NCBI GenBank assembly: GCA_903847905.1
Contig: CAINEZ010000350.1
Location: 1 to 53,313, forward strand
Reading direction: 5' to 3'
Source: an uncultured Bacteroidota bacterium
GTDB lineage: Bacteria > Bacteroidota > Bacteroidia > Bacteroidales > CG2-30-32-10
Length of the DNA: 53,313 nucleotides
Shown: positions 2 to 40,055 of the stretch, one piece after another
How positions within the stretch are numbered: the first letter of the stretch is position 1
Layout: each line of letters begins with the position of its first letter
Made by a program: the position numbers and the translations under genes
The notes under the pieces: generated by a model
Told to the model about the DNA's origin: nothing
What the model saw: the letters and a program-made list of their open reading frames with translations, nothing else
The model's database searches: none

Positions 2-1255
2 TTTTCTTCTAAAAACAAAGAGATACCAAGATATGCGAAGTACTCTGGTGAGAATTTAGATGAATTTGTTAGAAAGCATAATTTGAGTATAAGTCAGTTA
101 GAGAAATTTAATAAAAAGAAATTATATGGATTTACATTTATGGATAGCTATCAAAAGAAACAAAAACAAAAAAGCCTTATTGGTTCGGATCTTATTATAG
201 GTCATAATAGTGAATCAAAAGATAAAATTCAAAATAGAGTCTCCTATGAAATTCAAAAACCAAGGATAGAAAACATAATAGGTGATGCACATTTTGAGCT
301 TCAAAAACCCAAAATATTTAGTGCCGATTCACAAAATAAAAATTTTGAAGTATTCCAGCAATTGGAATCAATGGAGAGAAGAATCCTTAATAAAATAGAC
401 GATCTTTCTTCAGATAGAGAATCTTCACAGAAAATTCTTAGTCTGCAAAAAGATATTGAGTCAATGAAAGAGAGAATAAATCAATCTAATAATGAAAAGG
501 AAAGGATAAAGATTGAGCATGATAATGTTCAATCAGAATTATTAAAAACCAAAAAAGAAAAGCAACAAGTTGAGCTAGAATATTCGCGTCATACAGAGAA
601 GGTAATATTCCTTGATTTTCTTGAACCTTATGCACGGGTTACATCTGAGTATTTTGCAATTGCTAAGTCGGGCTATCAAAGAGCTTTGGAATTATATGAA
701 AAAATAAGCGATACTGATTCGAAAAATTCTATTATAGTTGCACAACTAATACTTAAGTTTCAATTAAATATTCCATTAAAAACTGGTAACTGGGAAGAAA
801 TATTATTTGAAATTAAAGAAAATAAAGCAACATCAAATTCTGATTTGATAAGAAGTTTTAAACAAATTCCAAATAATGAAGAAAAGTTGAAAGAGTTTAA
901 GAGAATTCTTTTTAAAGATGTTTTTGAAAGATACGCAAGCTGTCTTATGATACTTGTTGAAGAATTGAGTAGGCTATCTAAATTTACGAATAGCTCTAGT
1001 GCTATTATTCAAGAGATTGAACAATATTATTTAAAGTTTTCATTAGAGTTGAAAAATAAAACAAAGGCAATTGGTTTAGATTTGAATTATGTACCATTAT
1101 TTGAAAATTATGAGAAATATGCAGCTTTCACAAAGTTGGCAAACCAAAATTGTAGTTTGCCGTATAAAGGCATTCAACACATGGAAAAAGATACCGTGTT
1201 AGAAATAATTAGTTATGGATTTGGTAATGAGGAAACAAAAGTAATTTTAGCATAA
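2..1255 (+). CDS. coiled-coil protein of unknown function; 5' end runs off the window (first visible gene of the tubulin-like operon)
   Basis: The frame of ORF 83..1255 stays open back to base 2 (FSSKNKEIPRYAKYSGENLDEF...), so the TTG at 83 is unlikely to be the start. It has a charged heptad-like stretch (SLQKDIESMKERINQSNNEKERIKIEHDNVQSELLKTKKEKQQVELE). The stop lies 2 nt before the next ATG. Confidence 0.6.
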   Translation, partial: FSSKNKEIPRYAKYSGENLDEFVRKHNLSISQLEKFNKKKLYGFTFMDSYQKKQKQKSLIGSDLIIGHNSESKDKIQNRVSYEIQKPRIENIIGDAHFELQKPKIFSADSQNKNFEVFQQLESMERRILNKIDDLSSDRESSQKILSLQKDIESMKERINQSNNEKERIKIEHDNVQSELLKTKKEKQQVELEYSRHTEKVIFLDFLEPYARVTSEYFAIAKSGYQRALELYEKISDTDSKNSIIVAQLILKFQLNIPLKTGNWEEILFEIKENKATSNSDLIRSFKQIPNNEEKLKEFKRILFKDVFERYASCLMILVEELSRLSKFTNSSSAIIQEIEQYYLKFSLELKNKTKAIGLDLNYVPLFENYEKYAAFTKLANQNCSLPYKGIQHMEKDTVLEIISYGFGNEETKVILA

Positions 1256-1257
1256 TT

Positions 1258-2460
1258 ATGAAAGTACTGTTTAATAATTTTGGAAAATATATAAAAACTG
1301 CAGAATATAGTTCTATAGAATTCTGGCTATTTCCAATAGTGACTATATTAGTAATATGGTTGATTACAATTATTGGGTTAAAGATTTTTTCAAAAAGAAA
1401 AAAACTCAAATCTATTTTCATTATACATAAGGCATGGATTTGTAGTTCATTGATTGTTGCAACAATTATTATTGGTTTGATTTGCTATTGGTGGTCAATA
1501 AATTTTTTTTCAGAGAAACCATTGCAATTATCATTACTAATCAGTCTTTTTATATCGCTCATTATTTCTATTATTAGCTTTCTTTCTTTAAGAAGATATT
1601 TTACTATTGATAATATTAAGGAAATTGTTCAACAACCTAAAACTCAAAACCAACTTGAAGAAACCATTACTTATACTAAAAAGACATACAGAAAAAAGAA
1701 ACTTTGTTATTTCATATTGCTTGTTGGATTTTTAATGTTGTTTTTTGTACTTAATAAAGGACAAAACCTGATATCAATTGTATTCGATAACTCTGGCAGT
1801 ATGGAAAGTAAGAATGCAACAGAAGCATTGTCTGAAACTTTTGACAACCTTGATAAAAACAATGAAATAATGTTAACAACATTAGAGGGCTTAAATGAAA
1901 ACTCTGTGGGTGGTAAGAGTTCATTAAATGAGATTTTAGCAATAAAAAAATATTCAAATTTACAGGCAGGTAATGTTGTTTTTTTTCCTGATCCTGCATC
2001 AGCAAAGGCAGGGCTTAATCAAATTTCAAATCAATGTTGGGGGTCTCCAATCTGCGAGTCAATCTGGAAATCATTCTTATTTATTAAAGAAACAAAAGCT
2101 AATGATAATTATAAAAATAAACTTTTGATAATTATTACCGATGGGGTGGATAATGTGAGCAATACAATACTTAATAATAAATTCTTTTTTGATAATCAAG
2201 ATTTTGTTGAATATTTCCCTCAGGATAAAGTTTTTATTATCGATTATTCTGGAGGAGCAATGAATCCATTTTTGCAGAAGTTTCAGGATGAGGGTTGTAA
2301 TAGTTATAATGTAACTAATGATAAGCAAGATTATATTAATGCACTGGATACAGCACTTAAACCATTTAAAAATAACTGGTATTTGATTTACTGGACAATA
2401 ATAATCACGGGTTTAATGACCCTTATTGCACTCTTTATTCAGCCCAAAAAAATAATGTAA
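1258..2460 (+). CDS. polytopic membrane protein with von Willebrand factor A (vWA) domain
   Basis: Several N-terminal hydrophobic helices are followed by a MIDAS-type DxSxS (ISIVFDNSGSMES) and LLIIITDGVDN. There is a C-terminal hydrophobic helix (WYLIYWTIIITGLMTLIALFI). The gene is tightly packed with its neighbours. Confidence 0.8.
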   Translation: MKVLFNNFGKYIKTAEYSSIEFWLFPIVTILVIWLITIIGLKIFSKRKKLKSIFIIHKAWICSSLIVATIIIGLICYWWSINFFSEKPLQLSLLISLFISLIISIISFLSLRRYFTIDNIKEIVQQPKTQNQLEETITYTKKTYRKKKLCYFILLVGFLMLFFVLNKGQNLISIVFDNSGSMESKNATEALSETFDNLDKNNEIMLTTLEGLNENSVGGKSSLNEILAIKKYSNLQAGNVVFFPDPASAKAGLNQISNQCWGSPICESIWKSFLFIKETKANDNYKNKLLIIITDGVDNVSNTILNNKFFFDNQDFVEYFPQDKVFIIDYSGGAMNPFLQKFQDEGCNSYNVTNDKQDYINALDTALKPFKNNWYLIYWTIIITGLMTLIALFIQPKKIM

Positions 2461-2462
2461 AC

Positions 2463-3602
2463 ATGAAAAAAAGTATTTTAATTACATTCTTTATTATCTT
2501 TTCATTTTCTTTATTTGCTCAGGATAATGTATTTGTACTTGTTGATATCTCCACATCGATTAAACAACATGAGCTTGAAGATGCGCAGCAATTAGTGAAA
2601 GATTTATTATCTGGGAACACTATAAATACAAATAAGTTTAAAGTTGATAATACACTTCCAAATTATACTGTAAAAACAGGTAATAAAATCATGATTATGC
2701 CTTTTGGCGACAAAACAACAATCATGAATTATATCCCCTTAATTAATACAATTAATAGTCAAGCGGATGTTAATAATTATATAAATTTATATTTTCCTGT
2801 TAGGCCCCATGACCCATGGACTTATATTTCTCTTGCCAAAGCACGTCTGGCTGAGATAGCAAAACGAAACAACATCAACGATTACAGGTTGATTATTGTT
2901 TCTGATAATACTTCTGATGCATATGGTGGGCATCCTAATTATAGTCTATTTGAACAACAATTAGTTGATGGATATAATACTAGTAATAATCCAGTAACTG
3001 AAAACCCTGGTATAAGAATAAAATTATTATCAAATAATGCATTTTCAGTTTTTGTTCAATCAGTAAATGTTTCTAGTTATAAACCACCCTCTATTAGCAA
3101 TGCTCAGAGTATAGATTCTATTAGTGCTCCTTTGAAAATCGAATTAACATCCTATAAAGGTGGTACAACTCAAAAGCCAATAATTGTAAATAAGAATAGT
3201 TTCCCATTAACATGGTTTTGTAAATCAGCGCCAACTAATGCAAAATATAAGATTAGTATTAGTCCTATAGATAACTCTGAGGAAAAATCACAAATTCTGC
3301 ATGCACAAAATTCTCCTTATAATATTCCTAATATAGCAGATGGTAGATGGAGGATTACTATATCTTCAGATAACTCAAGTTTTAATGCTTCATCGGATAG
3401 TACAACTATTGAAGTTAAAAATGGAAGTTCATTATGGATTTTATGGGTTTTACTAGTTCCTGTTTTGGGTGGTGGTGGATATTGGTATTGGAAAAAAACG
3501 CAAAATGATAAATTGAAAAAACTGAATGCTCTTTCTAATAGCGGTAGTTTTAGTACTGGTTCAACAATAAATACAAATTCTGACAATTCTGGTTATTTTT
3601 AA
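2463..3602 (+). CDS. exported, C-terminally anchored vWA-like protein
   Basis: Signal peptide MKKSILITFFIIFSFSLFAQ. DxSxS motif in VFVLVDISTSI, and RLIIVSDNTSD. C-terminal TM LWILWVLLVPVLGGGGYWYW followed by a Ser/Asn-rich tail. The ATG lies 2 nt after the previous stop. Confidence 0.7.
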   Translation: MKKSILITFFIIFSFSLFAQDNVFVLVDISTSIKQHELEDAQQLVKDLLSGNTINTNKFKVDNTLPNYTVKTGNKIMIMPFGDKTTIMNYIPLINTINSQADVNNYINLYFPVRPHDPWTYISLAKARLAEIAKRNNINDYRLIIVSDNTSDAYGGHPNYSLFEQQLVDGYNTSNNPVTENPGIRIKLLSNNAFSVFVQSVNVSSYKPPSISNAQSIDSISAPLKIELTSYKGGTTQKPIIVNKNSFPLTWFCKSAPTNAKYKISISPIDNSEEKSQILHAQNSPYNIPNIADGRWRITISSDNSSFNASSDSTTIEVKNGSSLWILWVLLVPVLGGGGYWYWKKTQNDKLKKLNALSNSGSFSTGSTINTNSDNSGYF

Positions 3603-3606
3603 TACT

Positions 3607-3990
3607 ATGGAGAACTTATTTTTTAACACTGATTATTTAAGCTTTCAGCAAACATTATTAAAGCTGATGCTTATGCTGGCTATAAGTGGTTTCATTATTT
3701 ATTTATTGTTCTTTATTTTTTCGAAATTGCTTTATAGAAAAAGCAAGTTTAGAAGGGAAGCTATCCTTAGATTGATCTTTTTATGGTCTTTATTTGTTTT
3801 TTTTATCCTTTTCAATATCTATATATTCTTTTTTTTCAACAAGGTAGGTATTGTTAATATGAATTTTACGAAAGCAATCTTTTATCTTGGAATTTTATCC
3901 CAAATAATAATTTATGTGACGGTTATTATTTCCTTTTTTGTAAAACGTCACTTTTTGCAAAAAGTAATTAACAATAACTCATTAAATTAA
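3607..3990 (+). CDS. small integral membrane protein
   Basis: A 127-aa ORF with 3-4 hydrophobic helices, 4 nt after the previous stop and 7 nt before the next ATG. No recognisable motif. Confidence 0.55.
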   Translation: MENLFFNTDYLSFQQTLLKLMLMLAISGFIIYLLFFIFSKLLYRKSKFRREAILRLIFLWSLFVFFILFNIYIFFFFNKVGIVNMNFTKAIFYLGILSQIIIYVTVIISFFVKRHFLQKVINNNSLN

Positions 3991-3997
3991 AGAAAAT

Positions 3998-6391
3998 ATG
4001 GCAACTCCAACTTTAATAATTGGTATTGGTACAAGTGGTCTATACACGCTTGAACATGTGCAGCGGTTTTATTATGAAACGTTTAAGAAAAACAAACCCG
4101 ATCATGTTGAGTATCTCTATATTGAAACAAATAAAGATAATCAAGTAGGAGTAACTCCTTTACCTAACGAAATTCGCAGGGTTTATGTTAGTCTGGGTGA
4201 AATGGAAAAAATGGTTGCTAACTTAAAAAATGACGGTTGTGGCGATTGGTTACCGCCTTCAAATCAAATAGTCAATGCTGGTATGGGTGCCGGTGGTATC
4301 AGGTCTTGTGGACGTTTGGCTCTTTGGGGAAATAACTCTGAAGGTGATAATTTTAAAAATGTCGTTGATGCGATTAATAATGCTTATGGTAGGATTGCTT
4401 CACATACTATCAAAGGTGCTGAAAATGCCAAACCTACAGTATTTATTACGGGTTCATTTACTGGAGGAACAGGATCTGGTATTTTTATTGACATGGGTTA
4501 TCTTCTTCGTCATTTAATTAAAGACATAAAAGAATTGTTCGGTCTATTTCTTCTGCCCAGCAAACCTTCTTCAATACGTGGTTATGAGGTCTTATATGCA
4601 AATAGCTATGGGGCTTTAAGAGATCTTGAACATTTTAATCAGGTTGAATCTGTATATAAAGAAAAGTGGCCTAATGGTGTCAAGAAAGAATTCGCTGTTC
4701 CTCCTTACGAGTTAGTTCAGTTTATCAGTCAGGATTATTATGATGGAAGTCCTGCAATGAGCAATTTGGGCGCATTATATAAAATGGCGGGTTTGTATTT
4801 ATTTTTGAACATTGCAGGAATAAAAGAGAAACGTATGGAACGGTTTGTTGATGCAAAATCCGCCGGTCATATTGATAAGTATGGTTCTTTTGGTCTTTCT
4901 GCTATTCAATTTCCAAAGGACCAAATTCAGGAATACGTTGCCTCAAAATTATCTGTTGATTTGATTAATCGTTGGACAGACTCAGCTCAATATTTTTCAA
5001 ACAATGAAAAGAAACCAATAAATGTTGCTGTAATTACCCAAAATACAAATAAAATTTTTGATGAATTTCTAGAAAATGCATTTCTCACATTAAATAGTAT
5101 TGGCGGTAGAGATTTAATAATTGATATTGAACGGGAAGCTATTAAAATAAATTCAAAAGATATAAAAGGAATTCCGGTTGATTATATTTCTCAAATGTTT
5201 ACCAGTTCTTCAAATAGTAACTTTTATTGTTTGGTTAAAAACAACATTCAATCAGCAGTTGATTCATTAATTGATGATATTCACGATTTAATCGTAAACA
5301 AACTTAATGAAACCGAAAATTTATATTTTACTAAACATGTTTTAGAATCAATCAGTCAAGTAATTGAAAAAACTCTGGAATATTGGAAACAATTAGGTCT
5401 CTCTTCTAAATCTGACATTTGGGAAAATATTCTACGCGAACAATGCGGTATAACTCAGAAAAATACTTATAAGAGTGTATTAGAGCAGAATTCTGTTTTA
5501 AAAGATAGGTTACTTGCTATTTTTGAAATTATGAAGATGCATTTGTTTATTAAAGGCATGATTGATATTGTACGCCATATTTCAAAAGAAGAGATTCCCT
5601 TCAAATCTTCTGTTTCAAATAAAGAGTTACCAAAATTAAAAACTATCGATTCTTTTATTCGGAATCTATCTGAAGTTACCGGCAGAGTTGTTTCTCAAGA
5701 CAATATTTTTACTTTTGAAAGACGAATAAAAAATATTGAACAAGATGTTAATGACGAAACATTACCTATTTTAAGAATTTATCCATCAGAATCATTTGTG
5801 AGTGAAACAGAAAATGCAAAACGTATTTATATTCAAAAAACAAATAATAATGCAAGGACAAAGGATGAGGTAATTACAACTTCATCTTTATGGGATTATT
5901 TTGTGAAAATTTCAAAATCACGTTTTCATGACGAAATCTATCGTGATTGTTTAAATTCATATAGGAAAAACATTGAATTAAAGGATTGTGTTCCAGATTT
6001 TGATGTTGCTAAGTATATTATTAGTCGACCTGAAGCAGGTATTAGAATTGCAAAAAGATCGCTTTCTCCATTCATTGCAATTGAAAAAATTCTTTCAAAT
6101 TCGGCATATCTTCCTAAATTTATTGCAGGAGGTGAATTAGGTTCTATTAAGGAGGTAATAAAAGTCTTTCAATTAAATAATTTCAATGATTACCCAGAAT
6201 CTAATGATCGAATGCTGGAGTTAAATGAACTAAAAAATATTTTGATTTTCTATGAGGAGAAAGGTGGATTTAATTTATTAAGCGATTTGAGTTATATAAA
6301 ACAAATGGAAGATGTCTATAAGAACCCATCTAATAATGAGAATAAGACTCCTGAAAGATGGACGAATGAGCGTAATGCGTATTTGTATTAA
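3998..6391 (+). CDS. non-canonical tubulin/FtsZ-superfamily GTPase-like protein (797 aa)
   Basis: N-terminal glycine loop LIIGIGTSGLYT, and TGSFTGGTGSGIFIDMG containing the tubulin signature GGTGSG. No TM segment. A long, mostly helical C-terminal extension is unlike FtsZ. Confidence 0.8.
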   Translation: MATPTLIIGIGTSGLYTLEHVQRFYYETFKKNKPDHVEYLYIETNKDNQVGVTPLPNEIRRVYVSLGEMEKMVANLKNDGCGDWLPPSNQIVNAGMGAGGIRSCGRLALWGNNSEGDNFKNVVDAINNAYGRIASHTIKGAENAKPTVFITGSFTGGTGSGIFIDMGYLLRHLIKDIKELFGLFLLPSKPSSIRGYEVLYANSYGALRDLEHFNQVESVYKEKWPNGVKKEFAVPPYELVQFISQDYYDGSPAMSNLGALYKMAGLYLFLNIAGIKEKRMERFVDAKSAGHIDKYGSFGLSAIQFPKDQIQEYVASKLSVDLINRWTDSAQYFSNNEKKPINVAVITQNTNKIFDEFLENAFLTLNSIGGRDLIIDIEREAIKINSKDIKGIPVDYISQMFTSSSNSNFYCLVKNNIQSAVDSLIDDIHDLIVNKLNETENLYFTKHVLESISQVIEKTLEYWKQLGLSSKSDIWENILREQCGITQKNTYKSVLEQNSVLKDRLLAIFEIMKMHLFIKGMIDIVRHISKEEIPFKSSVSNKELPKLKTIDSFIRNLSEVTGRVVSQDNIFTFERRIKNIEQDVNDETLPILRIYPSESFVSETENAKRIYIQKTNNNARTKDEVITTSSLWDYFVKISKSRFHDEIYRDCLNSYRKNIELKDCVPDFDVAKYIISRPEAGIRIAKRSLSPFIAIEKILSNSAYLPKFIAGGELGSIKEVIKVFQLNNFNDYPESNDRMLELNELKNILIFYEEKGGFNLLSDLSYIKQMEDVYKNPSNNENKTPERWTNERNAYLY

Positions 6392-6408
6392 TTAAATTCT
6401 ATCGTAAA

Positions 6409-7167
6409 ATGTTTACTGGTGTTACTGAATATATTCATGAAAATAACAGGGTTTCTATTCTGAAAAAAATAAGAATTGTTACTGCTCTTTTTATTTTAAC
6501 AATACTACTACCCTTTATAATTTATTTTCTTTTCTATTTTGGAATAGTAACTGGTAAAGGGGCTTTTAATTCTAACATTCAAGAACCTGTTGCAAAAGTA
6601 ATTGTAAGAGATGGTGTTGGAACAGCATTTTTAATAAGTCCTACCACTTTATTGACAGCTAGACATGTTGTCGAAAATTATAAAGTTGGTGATCAGGTTG
6701 ATTTGATTTTCGAACATTCAAAAAATCAGTTTCAAACAAAGGCAATAATTAAATTTATTACACCCACAACACAACTGACCACAAATGACGCTGTACCTCT
6801 TGATTATTTTTTGTCAGACGTTGCAATATTGGAAATACCTGAAGTAAATGATATTACACCATTAGTTTTAGGAGAATCAGATGCCGTCGTAAACCTTGAT
6901 GAAGTGATATTAATCGGATATCCTAATGGAGATTATTCTATTACAAAAGGAAATATCAATAGCAATACATATCAAGGTTTAAACCTTTTTAAGTTGGATG
7001 CAGCATCTAATCCTGGCAATAGTGGCGGGCCATGTATTCGTAAGGATGACAATACTGTAATTGGAATTTTAGTAGGAGGTAGTTTAATAGCGAAACAGGG
7101 CGAAAATATCGCAGTGAAAATAGATGATGTGAAAAAAATTTTAGAAAAGGCGAAGATAAATTATTAA
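6409..7167 (+). CDS. membrane-anchored trypsin-like (chymotrypsin-fold S1) serine protease
   Basis: An N-terminal TM (IVTALFILTILLPFIIYFLFYFGIV) follows KKIR. The catalytic residues occur in H-D-S order: LLTARHVV, SDVAILEI, GNSGGP. Confidence 0.85.
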   Translation: MFTGVTEYIHENNRVSILKKIRIVTALFILTILLPFIIYFLFYFGIVTGKGAFNSNIQEPVAKVIVRDGVGTAFLISPTTLLTARHVVENYKVGDQVDLIFEHSKNQFQTKAIIKFITPTTQLTTNDAVPLDYFLSDVAILEIPEVNDITPLVLGESDAVVNLDEVILIGYPNGDYSITKGNINSNTYQGLNLFKLDAASNPGNSGGPCIRKDDNTVIGILVGGSLIAKQGENIAVKIDDVKKILEKAKINY

Positions 7168-7190
7168 TTAATCGAAATCGTTTTAAAAAA

Positions 7191-7226
7191 TCTGTATGCC
7201 TCCGAATACAGAATATAATCTTTTTC
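7191..7226 (+). terminator. possible intrinsic terminator of the tubulin-like operon
   Basis: A 7-bp stem TCTGTAT/ATACAGA with an 8-nt loop. The T-run (TTTTT) starts only 8 nt after the stem, so this is weak. Confidence 0.4.
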
Positions 7227-8059
7227 TTGAAAATAGGAATTAGTATATAAATTCGACTGTTAAAGAAAACCTAAGCGCATAATTGATACTTCTTATAATG
7301 GTAATTTGCTTTCTAATATATGTGAATTGCACGAATTAATATTTTTTTTTTCTATGAATTTTGTTAATTATTTAAAACTTTATAATTTAGTTTTTTTAGT
7401 TGGGAAAAAAATCGGTTTTTAAATTGATTCATAGTATTAATAAATGTATAATTTATACGAATAAAATCTCAAAATCTTCTGAAGAGCCAATCAAGTAATA
7501 ATCACAAGTGGTTTTTATGAGTTAATTAACTTTCGATTTCAGTTTATTGAATGTTAAGACTATAAATATCAATATCCCCCTTTTTAGGTAGATTGAAAAG
7601 ATGCTGCAAAATGTTACTGATAATTTTTGTATATTCGATTCAGAAGGATTAAAAGCGCTAAATAGGTACAATACCATGCGGTATATACGTTATTATTTTA
7701 TTGAAAAAAGTTAAGCAGAATATATGATAAAATGAGTATTTTGAATTTTTCGCTCTTGTTTTTTAATAATTAATGAACGTAATTTGTTAACCGCAATTTA
7801 ATAAAAATATAATCAAATGATGAAGTTGAATTTTCAGTTTGGTTTAAATTTTTCAAGATTCCTTTATGAGGTTTTTACAAAAGGAAATAATTGTTTATTT
7901 GCTAATGCCAATTTTTGCGCTAAAAAAACTTATCCTACAAACAGGAAACTTTTACCACAATTAATTCTCTTTATAATCCAGTATTTTTTTTTTATTTTAG
8001 GCAATGCTTTGTCAAAGGATTGTTGGAAAAATTGAAACAAGAAAATTTTTATAGTATTT

Positions 8060-8118
8060 GTGGATACCAGAGACCACTATAATAAACGGGGCGGAACTGA
8101 AAAGCCAAATGAGTAGGG
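8060..8118 (+). promoter_or_regulatory. conserved upstream element, copy A (short form)
   Basis: GTGGATACCAGAGACCAC-TATAATAAACG-GGGCGGAACTGAAAAGCCAAATGAGTAGGG. It ends 22 nt before the ATG at 8141. Confidence 0.7.
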
Positions 8119-8140
8119 AAAATAAATAAGAATTATCATT

Positions 8141-8452
8141 ATGGATGAAATTCAAAATCAACAAGATCAGTCTACTCAAACTATAGTTATTAATCAGATT
8201 AAAAAGAAATCAAATGGATTAGGTACAGCAGGTTTTATTCTTGCATTAATAGCAGTTTGTTTAAGCTGGATTCCAATCATACAAATGGTAGGAGGGGTAC
8301 TATGGTTTCTGGGCTTATTATTTTCCTTTATCGGAGTATTTAAAGCCCCCAGAGGTTTAGCTATTGCAGGCTTAATAATTTCCTTGATTGATCTGATTAT
8401 ATTAATTGCAGTATTTGGAGCTCTCTTAGGGATTGGGTCTATATCACATTGA
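8141..8452 (+). CDS. small membrane protein (2-3 TM, DUF4190-like look)
   Basis: A polar N-terminus is followed by GLGTAGFILALIAVCLSWIPII, VLWFLGLLFSFIGVF and GLAIAGLIISLIDLIILIAVFG. Element copy A lies upstream. Confidence 0.6.
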   Translation: MDEIQNQQDQSTQTIVINQIKKKSNGLGTAGFILALIAVCLSWIPIIQMVGGVLWFLGLLFSFIGVFKAPRGLAIAGLIISLIDLIILIAVFGALLGIGSISH

Positions 8453-8470
8453 AGTATCATAAAGAATAAA

Positions 8471-8552
8471 GTGGAGACCAGAAACCACTAAAAAAAACGG
8501 CCTAATCCGATAGGATTATCGGGGGGCGGAACTGAAAAGCCAGATGAGTAGG
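8471..8552 (+). promoter_or_regulatory. conserved upstream element, copy B (long form with inserted hairpin)
   Basis: GTGGAGACCAGAAACCAC-TAAAAAAAACG-[GCCTAATCCGATAGGATTATCG]-GGGGGCGGAACTGAAAAGCCAGATGAGTAGGA. The inserted hairpin is TAATCC/GGATTA. Confidence 0.7.
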
Positions 8553-8567
8553 AAAAATATAAAGAAT

Positions 8568-8963
8568 ATGGACAATAATAAATTTAATAATTTCTATTCA
8601 AAGAAATCGGTAAGTGAATTATTAGGACAATTGCGTTCAAATAGAATGACTGGGGCTACAATGGATAAGGAATGGTATGAAGGTTTAATAGCACATCTTC
8701 GTGAAAGAAACTTATCATTTCAAGAAAGGAATATGTTTGAATATATTATTTCTACAGATCCGGAAACTCTTATGACCGAAAGTGAACCCCGAATAGTTGA
8801 AGAAAATATTAATAATAATAAAATGGCTCTAATAGATGAGCATGAAAAGTGGTACCATAATTGGGCTGCTATATTTTTTACAATTACTGCTGCAGTTACT
8901 ATTGGAGTGGTAGTTGGTATTATAATTATAGGAACATTACTTAGTAAAAAATTAGGATTTTAA
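8568..8963 (+). CDS. tail-anchored membrane protein, unknown function
   Basis: The ORF track starts at 8544, but that ATG is the invariant ATG inside the conserved element. The next in-frame ATG is 8568 (MDNNKFNNFY...). There is a single C-terminal TM (AAIFFTITAAVTIGVVVGIIIIGTLL). Confidence 0.55.
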   Translation: MDNNKFNNFYSKKSVSELLGQLRSNRMTGATMDKEWYEGLIAHLRERNLSFQERNMFEYIISTDPETLMTESEPRIVEENINNNKMALIDEHEKWYHNWAAIFFTITAAVTIGVVVGIIIIGTLLSKKLGF

Positions 8964-9056
8964 TTGAAACCTGTCTATAATAAAGTTCCTCATATTTGGT
9001 GGTTGGCACCGCCTTCATGGAAATATGAAATGAGATAATAATTGAAAATAAACAAA

Positions 9057-9551
9057 ATGGAAATAATAAATGTTTTATTAATGGCAGGGGGAGGTTCAGG
9101 AGGTAGTAGCATATGGTCACAATTTGTCGTTGGAATATTATTTGTTTTAATTTTTGGCTTTTTCTTTATTAGAAATCGGAAAAAAAACAAAAACAATCCT
9201 AAGATTAAGCGTGAAGGAATACCTCCTCAAAAGAAATTGACAATAGGTATTATCATATTTGTGGTTGGTATTGTTTCAATAATAATTGCAGCTATATTTC
9301 CATCTGACGGTTCAGCACAAAAAGAAGAAGAACGCTATTTTTTATATATTCCAGGTTTTATAATCTTAATAGTTGGTGCAATTAATATAGCTGTTAATAT
9401 TGGCCGTATTACCAAACAAAATAAAGTAATTCCTGAAATAAAAGACAATACTGACCAATTTGACAAGCTTGAAAAATTAGCAAAATTAAAAGATCAAGGT
9501 GTAATTACTGAAGAGGAATTTATTGAACAAAAAAGAAAAATATTAAATTAA
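9057..9551 (+). CDS. membrane protein with C-terminal SHOCT-like domain
   Basis: The track start at 9042 is TTG; the first ATG is 9057 (MEIINVLLMAGGG). It has 3 TM helices. The C-terminus DQFDKLEKLAKLKDQGVITEEEFIEQKRKIL matches the SHOCT pattern. Confidence 0.6.
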   Translation: MEIINVLLMAGGGSGGSSIWSQFVVGILFVLIFGFFFIRNRKKNKNNPKIKREGIPPQKKLTIGIIIFVVGIVSIIIAAIFPSDGSAQKEEERYFLYIPGFIILIVGAINIAVNIGRITKQNKVIPEIKDNTDQFDKLEKLAKLKDQGVITEEEFIEQKRKILN

Positions 9552-9559
9552 AAATAAAA

Positions 9560-9616
9560 GTGGAAACCAGAAACCACTATAAAAAACGGGGTTTGAATGA
9601 AAAGACAAACGACTAC
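9560..9616 (+). promoter_or_regulatory. conserved upstream element, copy C (short form, divergent 3' block)
   Basis: GTGGAAACCAGAAACCAC-TATAAAAAACG-GGGTTTGAATGAAAAGACAAACGACTAC. It ends 23 nt before the ATG at 9640. Confidence 0.55.
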
Positions 9617-9639
9617 ATTAAAAATTAAACCAAAACAAA

Positions 9640-9924
9640 ATGAAAAATTACATTATAATTTTTAAGTTATTTGTGATAGTAGGCATGCTTTACTTCACAT
9701 CATGCAAGAAGTGCGAAACCTGTACTCAAACTAAAACAACATCTATTGACGACCAAAGCTATGTACCCGGCTATCCGAAAACAACAACGTCAACCTTTGA
9801 AGCATGCGACGATTCCTTGGCAGAAATTGATGGAAAAACTATTACTTCGCATGATTATCTATACTTTGGACCAGGTTATAACAATGAATTTGTAACAATT
9901 ACAAATACTACAACATGTAAGTGA
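9640..9924 (+). CDS. small Cys-containing lipoprotein/secreted protein
   Basis: Signal peptide with a lipobox-like YFTSC. 94 aa. Element copy C lies upstream. Confidence 0.55.
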   Translation: MKNYIIIFKLFVIVGMLYFTSCKKCETCTQTKTTSIDDQSYVPGYPKTTTSTFEACDDSLAEIDGKTITSHDYLYFGPGYNNEFVTITNTTTCK

Positions 9925-9944
9925 ACCAATACCTACCTTTAATC

Positions 9945-9972
9945 ATTCGAGCGCAAAGGCGAATATTTTTTT
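9945..9972 (+). terminator. possible intrinsic terminator
   Basis: A 5-bp stem ATTCG/CGAAT followed by ATTTTTTT. The stem is short. Confidence 0.4.
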
Positions 9973-10068
9973 CAGCTATGTTAGTTTACAACTGGTTGAT
10001 ATTAGAATGAAGAAGTGTTGAATTTTGGAATACCAAAGATGGAATAGAATAACAATTCATAAAAAAAC

Positions 10069-10128
10069 GTGGAGACCAGAGACCACTGAAAAAAACGGGG
10101 CGGAACTGAAAAGCCAGATGAGTAGGGG
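10069..10128 (+). promoter_or_regulatory. conserved upstream element, copy D (short form)
   Basis: GTGGAGACCAGAGACCAC-TGAAAAAAACG-GGGCGGAACTGAAAAGCCAGATGAGTAGGGG. It ends 24 nt before the ATG at 10153. Confidence 0.7.
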
Positions 10129-10152
10129 TAATTTAAATAATGTGTACAGAAA

Positions 10153-11487
10153 ATGATGAAGCCTAAATTTTGTAATAAATTTATTTTGGGTATTCTATTT
10201 TTGCTTTCATTAAATTCTTATGGTCAGAAAGCACTATTAGAAAAAGATGGTATAATTTATTGTGCCAAAGTATATGGGTATAATATTGGAACAAATGACT
10301 TTATTATTGAATGGTTATCAAATTTTGATGAAAAATTTGAAACTTATAAAAATAATGAATTTGAATTAAACGCAAAAAGAAATGAAGCCTTGCAAGAAAT
10401 AAATGCATTATCTAATGAATTACAATTTACAGATATTTATACACAGAAAATGGATGCAGAATTTGGGCAGTATGATTTTAATACTAAAAATTTCGAATTT
10501 AAACCTTTACAATTTGCTGATGAAAAAAAGCAAATTAATACTTCATCTTATTTTTATGTGCATACAAATATTATAAGTGCTGATCATAATAGAGCCGAAG
10601 TTTACGCATTGAATTTTAAAGATTTTGATGGGATTCCTATGGAAACTAATGATGCAAACTTATTTATAAATAATAGAACTAAACAGGGATATAACTCTTC
10701 TTATGTCAATAGAAAAGTATATCTAAAAATTTATTTTTCGATATTACCTGAAAAAATGCAAGATAATTATGGTTGGGGTGGATTAAAAGATATTGGACTA
10801 TATAGTTATGTTTATAAGATTGAAGTATGGGGCGATGAATGTATGTCAGGAAATAAAATAGCAGTTCTTAATGCTAAACAACAACCTCCAACATACCTTT
10901 TAGCTACAGGAGAGGAATTTAATAAAAATTATGATTTAGGTAATACTCAAGAAAAATTGCCTTTGGAGCAAGGATGGATAAAAATTGTTGATCAAACTTT
11001 ATATAATAATAACAGTTCAAATTGTAATAAAAAAAATCATTTTGAAATACATCTTTCAATGGAGAAAGACTATGGTGATTTATATAAAATAAAATTTAAG
11101 TTTCGTACAAATGCTTGTTTAATTTTTTCACCAGGATTTTTTTATACAATTACTGATTTTAAAGAGAATAAATATCCATTATTAGTAACTGATGTCACTG
11201 ATAATATAGTAAATGATTATAAAATTGTATCTGTAAGAATTAATAAAGAAACTCTAAAAAGTCTCGGTGACGGTGGTTTAGCAGATATCAAATTTCAATT
11301 TAACCCAACTTCACAATATCAAGGGTCTTCTAATTATACAAAATATTTTACCAATAAAAAATGCACATCATCTATTTATTTGTATGTTAATTGGTCTTCA
11401 CTAAAAAAGGAAGCTCCTGAATATTGGTTGGATGAAAATGCAAATGATGATTTTAAAAAAATGATAAAAACAATTTTAAACCAATAA
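10153..11487 (+). CDS. secreted protein; N-terminal domain paralogous to 40056..41555
   Basis: Signal peptide ILGILFLLSLNSYGQ. The segment NRKVYLKIYFSILPEK...LYSYVYKIEVWGDE aligns by eye with NRKIYLKFTYSILNKQ...DIYVYSIDVLENE of the 40056 gene. Confidence 0.7.
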   Translation: MMKPKFCNKFILGILFLLSLNSYGQKALLEKDGIIYCAKVYGYNIGTNDFIIEWLSNFDEKFETYKNNEFELNAKRNEALQEINALSNELQFTDIYTQKMDAEFGQYDFNTKNFEFKPLQFADEKKQINTSSYFYVHTNIISADHNRAEVYALNFKDFDGIPMETNDANLFINNRTKQGYNSSYVNRKVYLKIYFSILPEKMQDNYGWGGLKDIGLYSYVYKIEVWGDECMSGNKIAVLNAKQQPPTYLLATGEEFNKNYDLGNTQEKLPLEQGWIKIVDQTLYNNNSSNCNKKNHFEIHLSMEKDYGDLYKIKFKFRTNACLIFSPGFFYTITDFKENKYPLLVTDVTDNIVNDYKIVSVRINKETLKSLGDGGLADIKFQFNPTSQYQGSSNYTKYFTNKKCTSSIYLYVNWSSLKKEAPEYWLDENANDDFKKMIKTILNQ

Positions 11488-11490
11488 AAT

Positions 11491-13122
11491 ATGAAAACAA
11501 AAATTTTAATTATTTTTACATTTATATGTTTGATTATAAGTTCTTGTGGAAATAAAGGTCATGAACTCAAATTAATACCTTATAAGGCTGGTGATCTTTG
11601 GGGTTATTTGGATAAAGATGGTAAAATTGTAATAAATCCACAATTTAATCAGGCTAATGTATTTGTTAATGGATTAGCCTTAGTACAATCTCCCGATAAT
11701 AAATATGGTTATATCGGTGAAGATGGCAAGTATATAATCAATCCAACCTATAAATATGCAACATCTTTTTCGGAAGGTTTCGCATGTGTAGTAATTGAAA
11801 ATGGCAAACCTCAATTTATCAATGAAAAAGGAGAAGTTAAATTTACAGTAGAAGGAAGCGAATATTGCGGTGTATTTAATGATGGATTTGCTCTGGTAAA
11901 AACTGGTGATTTGTGGGGTTATTGTGATAAAACAGGCAATATAAAAATCTCACCTCAATTTGATTATGCATTTCCTTTTTCAGAAGGTTTAGCTGCTGTT
12001 GCAAAAACAAATAAAGAAAAAAACGAAACTTTATGGGGATTTATTAATGATAAAGGAGTGATAATAATTCCATGTCAATTTCAACGAGTAAATTCATTTT
12101 CTGAAGGATTATCATTAGTGAGCGATGGAAAAAAATATGGATATATCGATAAGAGTGGTAAATATATTATAAACTCACAATTTGATAATGCAGGTGATTT
12201 TAAAAATGGTATGGCAATAATTTATCAAGGATCGTTATTTGGTTTTATAAATAAGGCAGGGAAAATAGTTATTAATCCACAATTTAAAAATGCTTTTGCC
12301 TTTTCAAATAACAATGATATTACATTGGTTTTTAGTTCTGATAATAAAGCAGGCTATATTGATAAAGAAGGTAAGTACGTTATCAACCCACAATTTGAAA
12401 ATGGAACTAATTTTTATAATAATATTGCATTTGTTTGTTCAGCAAATAAGTGGGGTATAATTGATAAAAAAGGCAAATATATAGTAAATCCTCAATTTGA
12501 AAACATTAATGTTGATTTTGAAAGGATCAAAACATCAATTATCGAATCAGATTATTTTGATATTCCTACTGTAGTAGACAAGTTTCTTACAGGTACTGAT
12601 ACGAAAAATTTCAGAGGTTTGAATGAAAAGACAATTTACTCAATTATTGATAATGCAATTCCAGCTGGAACGCCTCATTTGACAATTTATGGTAATAAAG
12701 CAACAACCTCAACACAAGAAGATTTGGATAAAATGGTTTTCATTAGTCAAAAATATTATTATTTTACTCAAGATATTTCTTCTCAAAAACCAGTATATAA
12801 AACAGAAAAACAATATAATGCTTATAGGGGCGGATATTATAATGCACAGATTTTTGACCATTATGATAACATTTATAATACAAATTCAGTTTTAATGGGT
12901 GCAGACTTTATACTTGGCTTTTCAGGAAAAGCGTATAATAAGAAGGTCGATATTATGACTGCGATCGGAGATGCAATAGCTCTTAAAATTGGTGTAAAAG
13001 ATAAAATTGATAATACAGGTAATAATGTGGAAATTAATAATAGTGATCTAGACATTCATATCGATAAAAATAAAGGTCAAGTTGGCTTTTATTTTATGCA
13101 ATATAATGCGGGCGGTGATTAA
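11491..13122 (+). CDS. lipoprotein with KWG/WG-containing beta-propeller-type repeats
   Basis: Lipobox LIISSCG. There are more than 8 repeats of the type DLWGYLDKDGKIVINPQF / NKYGYIGEDGKYIINPTY. Confidence 0.8.
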   Translation: MKTKILIIFTFICLIISSCGNKGHELKLIPYKAGDLWGYLDKDGKIVINPQFNQANVFVNGLALVQSPDNKYGYIGEDGKYIINPTYKYATSFSEGFACVVIENGKPQFINEKGEVKFTVEGSEYCGVFNDGFALVKTGDLWGYCDKTGNIKISPQFDYAFPFSEGLAAVAKTNKEKNETLWGFINDKGVIIIPCQFQRVNSFSEGLSLVSDGKKYGYIDKSGKYIINSQFDNAGDFKNGMAIIYQGSLFGFINKAGKIVINPQFKNAFAFSNNNDITLVFSSDNKAGYIDKEGKYVINPQFENGTNFYNNIAFVCSANKWGIIDKKGKYIVNPQFENINVDFERIKTSIIESDYFDIPTVVDKFLTGTDTKNFRGLNEKTIYSIIDNAIPAGTPHLTIYGNKATTSTQEDLDKMVFISQKYYYFTQDISSQKPVYKTEKQYNAYRGGYYNAQIFDHYDNIYNTNSVLMGADFILGFSGKAYNKKVDIMTAIGDAIALKIGVKDKIDNTGNNVEINNSDLDIHIDKNKGQVGFYFMQYNAGGD

Positions 13123-13197
13123 TATTATCCAACCCTTGGTTCAGGTTCCACCTCCATCGAAATATTAAATGAGTAAATGATTCTAAACAAAATAAAA

Positions 13198-13252
13198 ATG
13201 GAGACCAGCAACCATTAAAAAACGGGGCGGAACCGAAAAGCCAGATGAGTAG
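13198..13252 (+). promoter_or_regulatory. conserved upstream element, copy E (short form, compensated stem)
   Basis: ATGGAGACCAGCAACCAT-TAAAAAACG-GGGCGGAACCGAAAAGCCAGATGAGTAGG. Both stem sides are changed relative to the other copies (GTGG/CCAC becomes ATGG/CCAT). Confidence 0.7.
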
Positions 13253-13283
13253 GAAATAAGCTGTTTAACTTAAAACTAAGAAC

Positions 13284-14717
13284 ATGAAAAAGACAAACAT
13301 TTTTTTGCTGTTTTTAACCGCAACATTTTTGATTGCACTACTTTCAGGTTGTGCAGGAAAAAAAAACAATCTTAATACAGGATTAATACCTGTAAAAAGT
13401 AATGATAAATGGGGATATGTAGATAAAGAGGGAAAATACATCATCAATCCCCAATTTTCATACGCCGATTACTTTATCAATGGAATCGCATTGGTAAAAA
13501 GCAATGATAATAAGTATGGATTTATTAATGAAAAAGGTGAATATTTGATTAATCCACAATATAAAAATGCTATGCCATTTTCTGAAAATATGGCTTGTGT
13601 TATTTCAGAAGGTTGTGTTCCGAAATACATCAACAAAAAAGGTGATATTTTATTTGAAGTGCCAACAGCAGAGCAGGCGGGCAATTTTCATAACGGTTTT
13701 GCCAGAATAAAAAATAAAGACAACAAATGGGGATTTGTTGATAATACTGGGAATATTAAAATCAATTGTCAATACGATGGTGTAAATGATTTTAACGAAG
13801 GGATGGCTGCCGTAATGAATATAAATAAGAAAGACACTACTAAGACTTTTGAAGAATGGGGTTATATAAATGAAAAAGGTGAAATGATTATTAATTTCCA
13901 ATTTAAGGATGCGTCACCATTTATTGAATCTTTAGCCAGAATTACATTAGATTATAAACAATATGGATATATTGATACTAAAGGAAAAATGATAATAAAT
14001 CCTCAATTTGATGCAACTACGATATTTACCGATGGACTTGCTCCATTTAGATCGGGGAAATTATGGGGCTTTATTGATAAAACAGGTAAAATAAAGATCA
14101 ATCCTCAATTTGACGAAGTTGGTTTAATAAATAATAAACTAATTCCTGTAAGATCTGGCGAAAAATGGGGATATATTGATAAAGAAGGCAAGATTGTTAT
14201 TAATCCGCAATTTGACGATGCACTTTCATTTTTAGGCGATATTGCCATGGTGAAATCTTCCGACAAATGGGGTTTCATTGATAAATCAGGTAAATATATA
14301 GTAAATCCACAGTTTGAAGATATAAACAGAGATATATTAACATACCTAATTATCGGTTCTGATTGGGGAAATATTGTAGTGAGTGATAAAATACCACCTG
14401 TCGAAGAAATTGCTGAGAAATTTCTTACCTTTTTGAATAGAAAAGATTATGATGAAGCTAGAAAACTTGGTACCGAAAATACCAAACAAATGCTTGATAT
14501 GATGAAGAGTTTTGCTGGTGCTGCTGCAAAACCTACCGTTACAAAAGATGTAAAGATTGAGAATCTGAAATGTGATACAAATAATGATAAGGCTAGATGT
14601 ACATATACAGCCGAAGGGAAATTGGAATCAATTGATTTAGTAAAACAAGACAATAAATGGTTGGTTGATATGAAAAAGGAAGGTGGAGGGAATAATGCTT
14701 CATCACCAGGTGAATGA
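13284..14717 (+). CDS. lipoprotein with KWG/WG-containing repeats (paralogue of 11491..13122)
   Basis: Lipobox LLSGCAG. Repeats of the type DKWGYVDKEGKYIINPQF. The C-terminal roughly 110 aa are distinct. Confidence 0.8.
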   Translation: MKKTNIFLLFLTATFLIALLSGCAGKKNNLNTGLIPVKSNDKWGYVDKEGKYIINPQFSYADYFINGIALVKSNDNKYGFINEKGEYLINPQYKNAMPFSENMACVISEGCVPKYINKKGDILFEVPTAEQAGNFHNGFARIKNKDNKWGFVDNTGNIKINCQYDGVNDFNEGMAAVMNINKKDTTKTFEEWGYINEKGEMIINFQFKDASPFIESLARITLDYKQYGYIDTKGKMIINPQFDATTIFTDGLAPFRSGKLWGFIDKTGKIKINPQFDEVGLINNKLIPVRSGEKWGYIDKEGKIVINPQFDDALSFLGDIAMVKSSDKWGFIDKSGKYIVNPQFEDINRDILTYLIIGSDWGNIVVSDKIPPVEEIAEKFLTFLNRKDYDEARKLGTENTKQMLDMMKSFAGAAAKPTVTKDVKIENLKCDTNNDKARCTYTAEGKLESIDLVKQDNKWLVDMKKEGGGNNASSPGE

Positions 14718-14740
14718 TTTGCTGGAATTATTGATAATTA

Positions 14741-14779: not shown

Positions 14780-14825
14780 TGCGCAATATGAACTTTTAAT
14801 ATTTGGTATCTAAAATAGTATAAAA

Positions 14826-40037: not shown

Positions 40038-40055
40038 AAATTTATAATAAGAAAA

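Follow-up and report, generated by a model that had tools for sequence, protein, structure and literature searches.

A seven-gene operon of Bacteroidota encoding an FtsZl1-type tubulin-like GTPase, a membrane-tethered Hsp70-like protein, putative vWA proteins and a membrane-anchored S1 protease

Introduction

What does a tubulin-like GTPase do in an operon whose other products are predicted membrane proteins, one of them a protease? The question is raised by the left end of contig CAINEZ010000350.1 (assembly GCA_903847905.1), a stretch of 53,313 nucleotides from an uncultured Bacteroidota bacterium that is called the window here, at its full length. An earlier note, made from the letters of this DNA alone, described a tubulin/FtsZ-like GTPase gene within a run of six co-directional genes 2-17 nt apart and offered two roles for the set, membrane remodelling or a conflict or stress-triggered effector. 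All of its coordinates and gaps were reproduced. Six open reading frames (ORFs) lie on the + strand at the left end of the window, with gaps of 2, 2, 4, 7 and 17 nt, and are followed by an AT-rich spacer. Two of them code for candidate von Willebrand factor A (vWA) proteins with a metal-ion-dependent adhesion site (MIDAS), one of which also has a fibronectin type III (FNIII)-like domain. The features are as follows.

2..1255, + strand: orf1, coiled-coil protein (gene 2, partial), open at the 5' window edge; translation, alignment
1258..2460, + strand: orf2, polytopic vWA protein (gene 3), 400 aa; weak VWA_2 match, MIDAS motif DNSGS, hydropathy
2463..3602, + strand: orf3, exported vWA-FNIII protein (gene 4), 379 aa; weak VWA_2/VWA matches, FNIII profile
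3607..3990, + strand: orf4, small integral membrane protein (gene 5), 127 aa; hydropathy, three predicted transmembrane (TM) segments
3998..6391, + strand: tubulin/FtsZ-like GTPase (gene 6), 797 aa; PF13809, AlphaFold2 (AF2) model, Foldseek
6409..7167, + strand: S1 serine protease (gene 7), 252 aa; Trypsin_2, catalytic triad, one TM segment of N-in orientation
7168..8054, no strand: AT-rich non-coding spacer at the operon end, ~890 nt without a convincing ORF

A seven-gene operon of Bacteroidota

The first of the six ORFs is open at the window edge, and the earlier note had guessed that the operon was longer. This was borne out by related loci, which carry a further conserved gene upstream, coding for a membrane-tethered Hsp70-like protein of ~1200 aa. 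Relatives were used for the leftward extension because the only recorded contig with the exact tubulin-like protein is 4.5 kb long. Since one extra conserved ORF lies directly upstream of the coiled-coil gene and nothing conserved precedes that ORF, an operon of seven genes is well supported, of which the window holds gene 2 (partial) to gene 7. The window copy is without gene 1 and ~190 N-terminal residues of gene 2. The seven genes code, in order, for the Hsp70-like protein, a bitopic coiled-coil protein, a polytopic vWA protein, a vWA-FNIII protein, a 3-TM protein, an FtsZl1-type tubulin-like protein and an anchored S1 protease.

The earlier note had asked whether the order from the vWA genes to the protease gene is kept across Bacteroidota. 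One genome per species was scanned, covering 185,579 species, and 187 loci with a tubulin-like relative were found, of which 80 were kept; the counts are lower bounds because the scan was motif-limited. About 30 of the 187 loci carry partner genes. By tblastn, the order coiled-coil, TM-vWA, signal peptide-vWA, small membrane, tubulin-like and protease gene recurs in ~30 Bacteroidota genomes, among them those of Lentimicrobium, Bacteroidales, Chitinophagaceae, Flavobacterium, Emticicia, Dyadobacter, Saprospiraceae, Draconibacterium, Flavivirga, Prolixibacteraceae, Pedobacter and Cyclobacteriaceae. Synteny of all seven genes, gene 1 included, was recorded for eleven of these groups, the list being the same but for the entry Bacteroidales. 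The arrangement of vWA and tubulin-like genes is kept in 27-32 loci. With the same order in ~30 genomes, the arrangement is not a matter of chance.

The products were predicted from sequence, by hydropathy and the positive-inside rule, to lie on both sides of the inner membrane, in agreement with the earlier note. Both vWA domains and the S1 protease come out as periplasmic; the coiled coil, the tubulin-like protein and the Hsp70 module come out as cytoplasmic. As gene 1 and full-length gene 2 each code for an ectodomain and a TM helix, in addition to the membrane proteins of the window, six of the seven proteins are predicted to span the inner membrane and the tubulin-like protein alone to be soluble. 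Because both vWA domains are periplasmic in this prediction, the idea in the earlier note that vWA adaptors couple a filament to the protease stays inferential.

At the downstream end, a terminator scan 3' of the protease gene gave no consensus terminator. A weak hairpin (CTGTAT...ATACAG) lies at ~7193-7212, inside the AT-rich spacer. The ORFs further downstream in the window have no counterparts in related loci (tblastn).

The tubulin-like GTPase

The 797-aa protein matches the Tubulin_2 profile PF13809 (E=2.2e-47, 162.5 bits versus a cut-off of 27); the match runs from residue 6 to 323 and takes in positions 1-355 of the 356 in the profile. The two glycine loops named in the earlier note are in place: GIGTSG, a T1-like loop, at residues 9-14, and GGTGSG, the T4 loop, at 156-161 (TGGTGSG, 155-161). 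In an alignment of 29 homologues (46-84% identity), residues G9, I10, G11, G14, G152, G156, G157, T158, G159 and G161 are invariant, and conservation runs on through the C-terminal 450 residues. An AF2 model built on this alignment (pLDDT 87, pTM 0.80) shows a Rossmann-type GTPase domain with a long helix at 257-289 in the H7 position, within which the conserved D285 lies, then a small beta/alpha subdomain (295-340) and a mostly helical region (~370-797). No T7 catalytic loop could be placed from the model and the alignment. A Foldseek search of the model against the PDB returned CetZ2 (E=1.6e-5), CetZ1, Staphylococcus aureus FtsZ, TubZ, gamma-tubulin and BtubA, each over ~320-340 aligned columns; the helical region gave no known relative in the structure search. 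Profile and structure thus place residues 1 to ~340 in the tubulin/FtsZ fold; the earlier note had expected such a domain in residues 1-250 or so.

Outside this fold the protein departs from FtsZ, again in line with the earlier note: its long C-terminal extension is mostly helical in the model and has no FtsZ_C or Tubulin_C match in Pfam. No TM segment was called by hydropathy, and the score against PF00091 is 14.9 bits versus a cut-off of 33. The family to which the earlier note had pointed proved to be the right one: on its profile match, the window protein belongs to FtsZl1 (Tubulin_2) of Makarova and Koonin (2010; PMC2875224). Of all branches of the tubulin/FtsZ superfamily, FtsZl1 is probably the one that has diverged furthest; in a 2023 phylogeny of the superfamily, Tubulin_2 sequences served only as the outgroup.

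A search of 5.8 billion proteins gave 279 homologues, nearly all of them ~800 aa long and alignable over their full length. Those that are named all come from metagenome-assembled genomes (MAGs) of Bacteroidota, with Lentimicrobium at 81% identity. Among 1.84e9 cluster representatives (clusters at 50% identity), 2382 clusters were matched at E<=1e-3 but no more than 114 at E<=1e-30, which makes the full-length clade a rare one. Some orthologues are longer (890-1022 aa), and in their C-terminal extensions no Pfam domain was matched except for one weak TPR hit; fusion to a TIR domain, described below, was found in two orthologues only. Foldseek against viral models gave weak phage-tubulin matches only.

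The membrane-tethered Hsp70-like protein

Gene 1 was found by clustering all ORFs of the related loci. It lies directly upstream of the coiled-coil gene in 27 loci, typically after an intergenic gap of ~280-850 nt, and its product is 730-1316 aa long. Pfam HSP70 (PF00012) was matched by 21 of 22 orthologues, and the family profile matched the nucleotide-binding domains (NBDs) of BiP and DnaK in the PDB (E=8e-14). Four phosphate-binding motifs, DPGTTGS, DMGGAT, GGDTID and SGRS, show little or no variation within the family. Long forms consist of a signal peptide, a conserved ~290-aa domain, a TM helix and a cytoplasmic part; short forms of ~730 aa are without the ectodomain. The orthologue from Lentimicrobium was modelled with AF2 (pLDDT 82), and the parts of the model are the following.

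Residues 18-250: alpha/beta domain
Residues 260-420: beta-sandwiches
Residues 427-452: TM helix
Residues 455-610: two further beta-sandwiches
Residues 617-1050: NBD
Residues 1056-1173: terminal beta domain

In Foldseek, ~610 columns of the model aligned with a structure of DnaK that is without the alpha-helical part of the substrate-binding domain (SBDalpha; 5obu, E=6e-22). Since the modelled protein ends at the beta domain, it has no alpha-helical lid. The alpha/beta domain and the first beta-sandwiches are predicted to be periplasmic, and the parts after the TM helix cytoplasmic. On this model, gene 1 is predicted to code for a membrane-tethered, lidless Hsp70, made up of the NBD and the beta part of the substrate-binding domain (SBDbeta), with a periplasmic ectodomain. 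No J-domain or GrpE co-chaperone is encoded in the operon (Pfam). The periplasmic N-terminal domain gave nothing at E<=10 in a profile search of the PDB. A third vWA domain was considered for it by eye, on a stretch reading RRHFIIAYDVS...ILLSDFLTGS, and is not claimed, as hhalign against the orf2 family returned a probability of 0.2%.

The coiled-coil, vWA and small membrane proteins

In the window, orf1 is the C-terminal 417 aa of a ~600-aa protein and begins just after a TM helix. According to an alignment of 17 orthologues, the full product of gene 2 has a signal peptide, a ~180-aa periplasmic domain, a TM helix, a cytoplasmic coiled coil and a conserved C-terminal domain; short variants are without the ectodomain. 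The coiled coil of the earlier note was thus recovered, and the picture of a protein that is just a coiled coil gave way to that of a bitopic membrane protein. In 20+ loci an orthologue stands in the same place, and residues W264, E320, L366, F367, E401, I402, G406 and T412 of orf1 are >=90% conserved. In the PDB, the orf1 profile matched only coiled coils. Two further assignments were tried and dropped: a GrpE-like exchange factor for the Hsp70, for which the PDB profile gave generic coiled coils and not GrpE, and a LysM-like stretch at the start of orf1 (YAKYSGENLDEF...QLEKFN), which found no Pfam or PDB support.

By hydropathy, orf2 has four TM segments, with an external vWA domain (~170-373) and a C-terminal TM segment. 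Its MIDAS motif DNSGS lies at 177-181; D177, S179, S181 and D295 are >=90% conserved, and G296 is conserved as well. The window copy matches VWA_2 with E=4.8e-4 and 21.1 bits (cut-off 27). Among orthologues VWA_2 was matched by 6/15 and VWA by 3/15 (best E=1e-5), and the profile gave weak matches to integrin I-domains in the PDB (E=0.14). The orf3 protein has a signal peptide, a periplasmic vWA domain, an FNIII-like beta domain (E=2.4e-4 for its profile against fibronectin FNIII), a C-terminal TM segment at ~322-345 and a cytoplasmic tail of ~35 aa; the TM segment was read by eye and was not called by the hydropathy scan. The MIDAS motif of orf3, DISTS, lies at 28-32, with D28 and S30 >=90% conserved and D117, T120 and D152 also conserved. 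Its window copy reaches E=0.046/0.07 with VWA_2/VWA (14.8 bits, cut-off 27), and VWA_2 was matched in 5/19 orthologues (best E=4.8e-6).

For these two proteins the earlier note had claimed MIDAS DxSxS motifs and a topology of one polytopic and one exported, C-terminally anchored protein. The motifs are present in both, and hydropathy fits the topology, with the anchor of orf3 placed by eye as stated. The vWA assignment of the window copies is weak, both being below the Pfam cut-offs, and is backed by the profile matches of their orthologues. Homology between orf2 and orf3 was sought with hhalign, which aligned the MIDAS-to-TDG region with E=0.007 and a probability of 5.7%, too weak to use. For orf4, a small membrane protein in the earlier note too, three TM segments are predicted by hydropathy; orthologues stand at the same position in 32 loci, and it had no significant match in Pfam, NCBIfam or PADLOC.

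The protease

The last gene codes for an S1 protease (Trypsin_2 E=7e-22, Trypsin E=4e-13; Pfam) of the kind described in the earlier note, with an H-D-S triad and a TM anchor after KKIR. The triad, H86/D137/S205, is >=90% conserved in 31 orthologues. The TM segment (~23-48) is predicted to be N-in, and the catalytic domain to lie external to the membrane. No PDZ domain was found (Pfam). The best relatives in NCBIfam are the HtrA, DegP and MamE family proteases, at 18-41 bits versus cut-offs of 250-800, and in PADLOC it comes closest to the protease domains of RT-Protease_XI, PDC-M35A, LmuA and Avs1b.

Distribution and evolution

Relative to the window proteins, orthologues of the protease have a median identity of 65%, those of the tubulin-like protein and of orf2 49% each, those of orf4 45%, those of orf3 32% and those of the coiled-coil protein 31%. 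On these values the rates of evolution differ sharply, orf3 and the coiled-coil protein evolving fastest and the protease slowest. The tubulin-like gene closest to that of the window (81%) is in locus L001, and the closest coiled-coil (68%) and orf3 (59%) genes are in L007, the tubulin-like gene of which is only 47% identical. The modules are therefore mosaic, and their distribution, as sampled by genome, is rare and patchy. It is well supported that the operon is self-contained and spreads horizontally within Bacteroidota. As to carriers, no phage match was found, and plasmids hold only distant FtsZl1 genes.

Three loci come from MAGs assigned to other phyla: L008 and L010 ('Bacilli bacterium') and L040 ('Cyanobium sp.'). 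They are Bacteroidota-type operons on short contigs, with identities to the window proteins of 47-59% in L008/L010 and 24-48% in L040, and either binning contamination or cross-phylum transfer would account for them. In Verrucomicrobia (L029-L032, L035) a full-length tubulin-like homologue (28% identity, ~780 residues) occurs as a solo gene without the partners. It adjoins LolCE/MacB-type permeases in L031 and L029, and in L031 also UvrC and an M23 peptidase, neighbours that give no clue to its role.

Genomic neighbourhoods

P0114 and P0115, two orthologues of the tubulin-like protein with 47-48% identity along the whole 800 residues, end in a TIR_2 domain (E=3.5e-19 and 1.6e-18); TIR was found in these two only. 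On the contig of P0115 (JGI 3300075153; genes 2532-7106 and 7161-10481), the TIR-fused copy directly follows a TIR-NACHT-WD40 STAND gene, and in L081 (1540-4863) it follows a WD40-repeat ORF truncated by the contig end. Neither of the two TIR-fused loci shows the vWA/protease set. The TIR-tubulin-like protein and the STAND gene may be the two parts of a separate immune system that uses the same tubulin-like module.

Other relatives have defence-type neighbours as well (Pfam). One locus is surrounded by integrases, DUF6088/AbiEii, IS91, Mrr and SIR2_2, another by a 1242-aa nSTAND3/NB-ARC protein and another by HsdR, and a Type ISP restriction-modification enzyme adjoins the locus of the closest relative (84% identical). 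Altogether, defence-type genes were seen in 5/8 Pfam-annotated neighbourhoods, the TIR locus included; this is a raw count without a background rate. One relative adjoins ClpB and Lon.

Downstream of the protease gene, at least five loci carry a gene for an SNase lipoprotein with an LxxC lipobox, which follows the protease gene directly in two. The following positions were noted.

L001, 14987-15508: SNase lipoprotein gene
L084, 13152-13691: SNase lipoprotein gene
L086, 13187-13693: SNase lipoprotein gene
L087, 15102-15653: SNase lipoprotein gene

Variable membrane proteins of ~600-680 aa are sometimes encoded between the protease and SNase genes. The window copy of the operon has neither the SNase gene nor these membrane proteins.

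Distant FtsZl1-vWA pairs were seen on two megaplasmids. On the megaplasmid pMESIL01 of Allomeiothermus silvanus (L082, 7366-13767) the pair lies between two identical IS701 copies and adjoins BrxL, a helicase and a WYL protein. On pNPUN01 of Nostoc punctiforme (L083, 7982-12300) its neighbours are CHAT, caspase and S8 peptidase genes.

Possible roles of the operon

We give a conflict or immune role for the operon an even chance. Of the two roles offered in the earlier note, the evidence leans to a conflict effector over membrane remodelling. This is based on the TIR fusions beside STAND/WD40 genes, the 5/8 defence-type neighbourhoods, the patchy distribution, the mosaic modules, the SNase neighbours, the plasmid contexts of distant FtsZl1-vWA pairs, the fast-evolving ectodomains, the defence-like protease domain and the assignment of similar neighbourhoods to conflict systems by Kaur et al. 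(2020).

In such a role the operon would code for a trans-membrane system of sensor, switch and effector, used in conflicts such as an attack on the envelope by phages or competitors. The fast-evolving ectodomains of the vWA/FNIII proteins and the coiled-coil protein would bind a foreign or damage-derived ligand through the metal-dependent MIDAS, and TM segments together with short cytoplasmic tails would relay the signal across the membrane. At the inner side of the membrane, nucleotide-dependent thresholding and assembly would fall to the tubulin-like GTPase and the Hsp70 module: GTP-dependent polymerisation could cluster the membrane partners, and the SBDbeta of the Hsp70 could hold or release the tail of a partner. 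Clustering would then switch on the periplasmic protease. In some relatives, the exported lipoprotein SNase or the fused TIR domain may be an additional or alternative effector. The most specific version of this scheme, an inner-membrane immune receptor that senses envelope attack and responds by inflammasome-like, Hsp70-chaperoned polymerisation of the tubulin-like protein to engage periplasmic effectors, is tentative and on balance doubtful.

Several observations weigh against a conflict role or against parts of the scheme. Apart from the generic protease domain, PADLOC-DB v2 gave no match for five window proteins, the Hsp70-like protein or the full coiled-coil protein, and NCBIfam likewise yielded generic protease matches and nothing else. 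The flanks of the window contain no recognisable defence genes; WG, MORN, DUF4852, TPR and zinc-ribbon proteins are encoded there instead. Three of the eight annotated neighbourhoods are without a defence-type gene, two being of the housekeeping/proteostasis kind and one having unannotated flanks, and the 5/8, as a raw count, is suggestive only. On the identities above, the protease is the most conserved component, whereas effectors of conflict systems are typically variable, and it could be a signalling or maturation protease instead. The combination of an Hsp70 with an HtrA-like protease could equally well serve proteostasis, and signalling may run either outside-in or inside-out. With regard to polymerisation, the T7 loop was not identifiable in FtsZl1 (Makarova and Koonin, 2010; PMC2875224). 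The Hsp70 model belongs to the 81%-related locus, in another genome than that of the window. Finally, no experimental paper on the FtsZl1 family was found in a literature search, which agrees with the statement in the earlier note that such families lack experimental function.

Among the alternatives, a membrane-remodelling or cytoskeletal machine survives best, and is unlikely in our estimate. An anchored filament would deform or organise the inner membrane, giving vesicles, invaginations or envelope domains; the periplasmic vWA domains would attach to the wall or to the outer membrane, and partners would be trimmed by the protease. Makarova and Koonin (2010; PMC2875224) inferred such a role from the membrane-rich neighbourhoods of FtsZl1, and it suits an intact tubulin fold with conserved GTP loops, an operon in which six of seven products are membrane proteins, and the position of some loci among housekeeping genes. 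A rare, patchy, mobile and mosaic distribution would, however, be unusual for a core function in cell biology. Remodelling also sits poorly with the TIR-fused orthologues beside a TIR-NACHT-WD40 or WD40-repeat gene and with the frequency of defence-type neighbours, and no ESCRT, dynamin or lipid-handling partner is found in the operon (Pfam).

An envelope proteostasis or stress module is less probable still, with a small chance of being correct. The tethered Hsp70 and the HtrA-like protease would process damaged proteins caught by the vWA/FNIII domains, and the tubulin-like protein would serve as a scaffold. In its favour, the Hsp70 has an NBD, a modelled SBDbeta and conserved ATPase motifs, HtrA, DegP and MamE are the best NCBIfam relatives of the protease, one relative lies next to ClpB and Lon, and the vWA domains of MoxR systems are co-chaperone-like peptide binders, as reviewed by Kaur et al. 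(2020; PMC7159879). The protease, however, is without the PDZ domains that define HtrA/DegP, the operon contains neither DnaJ nor GrpE, and its coiled-coil protein is not GrpE-like. The TIR fusions and defence-island contexts would be left unexplained, and housekeeping genes for proteostasis are normally less sparse. 

A second FtsZ paralogue for cell division or shape determination, which the tubulin/FtsZ fold with its intact GTP-binding loops might suggest, is highly improbable, as the earlier note and Makarova and Koonin (2010; PMC2875224) also held, given the absence of ftsA, ftsQ and mur neighbours (the flanking genes being those for vWA, membrane and protease proteins), the lack of FtsZ_C, the PF00091 score below its cut-off, the unrelated 450-aa C-terminal domain after the GTPase fold and the presence of the gene in a tiny fraction of Bacteroidota genomes only.

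If the operon does serve in conflict, a cytoskeletal GTPase and a membrane-tethered Hsp70 would join the switches of bacterial immunity, and the operon would be a rare case of inner-membrane signalling to periplasmic effectors. Should the specific receptor scheme be true, no other member of the tubulin superfamily would have been shown to act in prokaryotic immunity before, and a periplasmic sensor domain would be new for an Hsp70. If a conflict role is wrong, the operon would still code for a new kind of membrane-bound tubulin/Hsp70 machine. Sixteen years after FtsZl1 was predicted, experimental data on it were not found; its function is now directly testable because the operon is compact, sharply delimited and present in the cultivable genera Flavobacterium, Pedobacter, Dyadobacter and Flavivirga.

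Other features of the window

Beyond the operon, the window contains five + strand copies of the Rfam motif RF03081 'DUF805 RNA', a candidate cis-regulatory element, at 8055-8124, 8466-8558, 10064-10133, 13193-13259 and 39975-40043. They score 54-86 bits (gathering score 51), and each lies just 5' of a + strand ORF; the first begins right after the trailing spacer of the operon. Five copies of this orphan riboswitch-like RNA in 53 kb are unusual. Genes that follow the motifs include those for small membrane proteins (8141-9551) and, in the + strand stretches 10153-16475 and 40029-41555, two DUF4852 proteins, two adjacent proteins with WG beta repeats and a protein with MORN repeats. As no DUF805 protein is found among the ORFs after the motifs, the usual gene association of the motif is not upheld here.

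Two + strand genes code for zinc-ribbon proteins, one of 562 aa with an N-terminal zinc ribbon and TPR repeats (17920-19608) and one of 803 aa with several C-terminal zinc ribbons (27819-30230). On the - strand, positions 49745-53245 code for a 1166-aa SprB-repeat adhesin with a C-terminal sorting domain for type IX secretion, which marks the organism as one of the Bacteroidota. The adhesin stretch has 43% G+C, against ~29% in the remaining window.

Comparison with known systems

Single components of the operon recall well-known proteins and differ from them in definite ways. The tubulin-like protein differs from canonical FtsZ in having no FtsZ_C domain, a sub-threshold match to PF00091 and no neighbours from the dcw cluster. 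The protease shares with HtrA/DegP the S1 fold, the H-D-S triad and the periplasmic location (predicted here); it differs in being a single-domain, membrane-anchored protein of 252 aa that is without PDZ and scores far below the HtrA-family cut-offs. The product of gene 1 shares with Hsp70/DnaK an actin-fold NBD with conserved phosphate motifs, whereas it is modelled with the SBDbeta and without the SBDalpha lid, and no co-chaperone genes accompany it in the operon.

MoxR-vWA systems, which include the Bat aerotolerance operon of Bacteroides, combine two membrane-anchored vWA proteins with a chaperone-like NTPase. The same combination is encoded in a single operon here. In contrast to those systems, no MoxR AAA+ ATPase, DUF58 or BatA-type N-terminal domain was found (Pfam), and the NTPases are Hsp70-like and tubulin-like.

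FtsZl1 itself was described with vWA proteins, a novel GTPase, OmpA-family proteins and kinases, and membrane remodelling was proposed as its role (Makarova and Koonin, 2010; PMC2875224). The supplement of the same study lists single cases that resemble parts of the present operon: FtsZl1 with two vWA genes and a 1626-aa DnaK-like gene in Magnetospirillum, and FtsZl1 with a Do-type serine protease in Gemmata. FtsZl1 is encoded with vWA genes both there and here. The present operon differs in its fixed seven-gene order in Bacteroidota, its tethered lidless Hsp70, its bitopic coiled-coil protein, its FNIII domain and its anchored PDZ-less S1 protease, and the novel GTPase, OmpA-family proteins and protein kinases of the earlier set are absent.

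Among published descriptions, that by Kaur et al. (2020; PMC7159879) of conflict systems with tubulin, vWA and Hsp70 comes closest. That study put neighbourhoods that combine tubulin and FNIII with a pair of vWA proteins, one of them polytopic with its vWA domain outside the membrane, among GTPase-centric conflict systems; Hsp70 was treated as a separate theme that does not overlap with tubulin and comes with GrpE and DnaJ. The likeness extends to a tubulin-like protein with a helical/coiled-coil C-terminal region, two vWA proteins of which one is polytopic with an external vWA domain, a membrane-bound vWA+FNIII component, Hsp70 family proteins and, sometimes, trypsin-like effectors. Constant NTP-dependent switches joined to fast-evolving non-enzymatic sensor domains are common to both. 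The core of those systems, one or two P-loop DO-GTPases of the TRAFAC clade and a GAP1 protein (domains GAP1-N1/N2, -M and -C), is absent here. For the DO-GTPase, no conserved Walker A motif was seen in the seven protein families across ~30 loci (a single motif occurs in 1/28 Hsp70-like copies), and no GTPase match was found in Pfam for the operon proteins. GAP1, for which Pfam presumably holds models, was matched neither at E<=0.01 (Hsp70-like and full coiled-coil proteins) nor at E<=1 (six window proteins), and very divergent versions could escape such a search. Here, moreover, tubulin and Hsp70 are joined in one operon, in a different phylum, and the Hsp70 is tethered, lidless and without GrpE/DnaJ. 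With the accessory theme and without the defining core, the operon resembles the systems of Kaur et al. but falls outside them. It belongs with FtsZl1, as a variant of a computationally predicted kind that is already known from Makarova and Koonin (2010) and Kaur et al. (2020).

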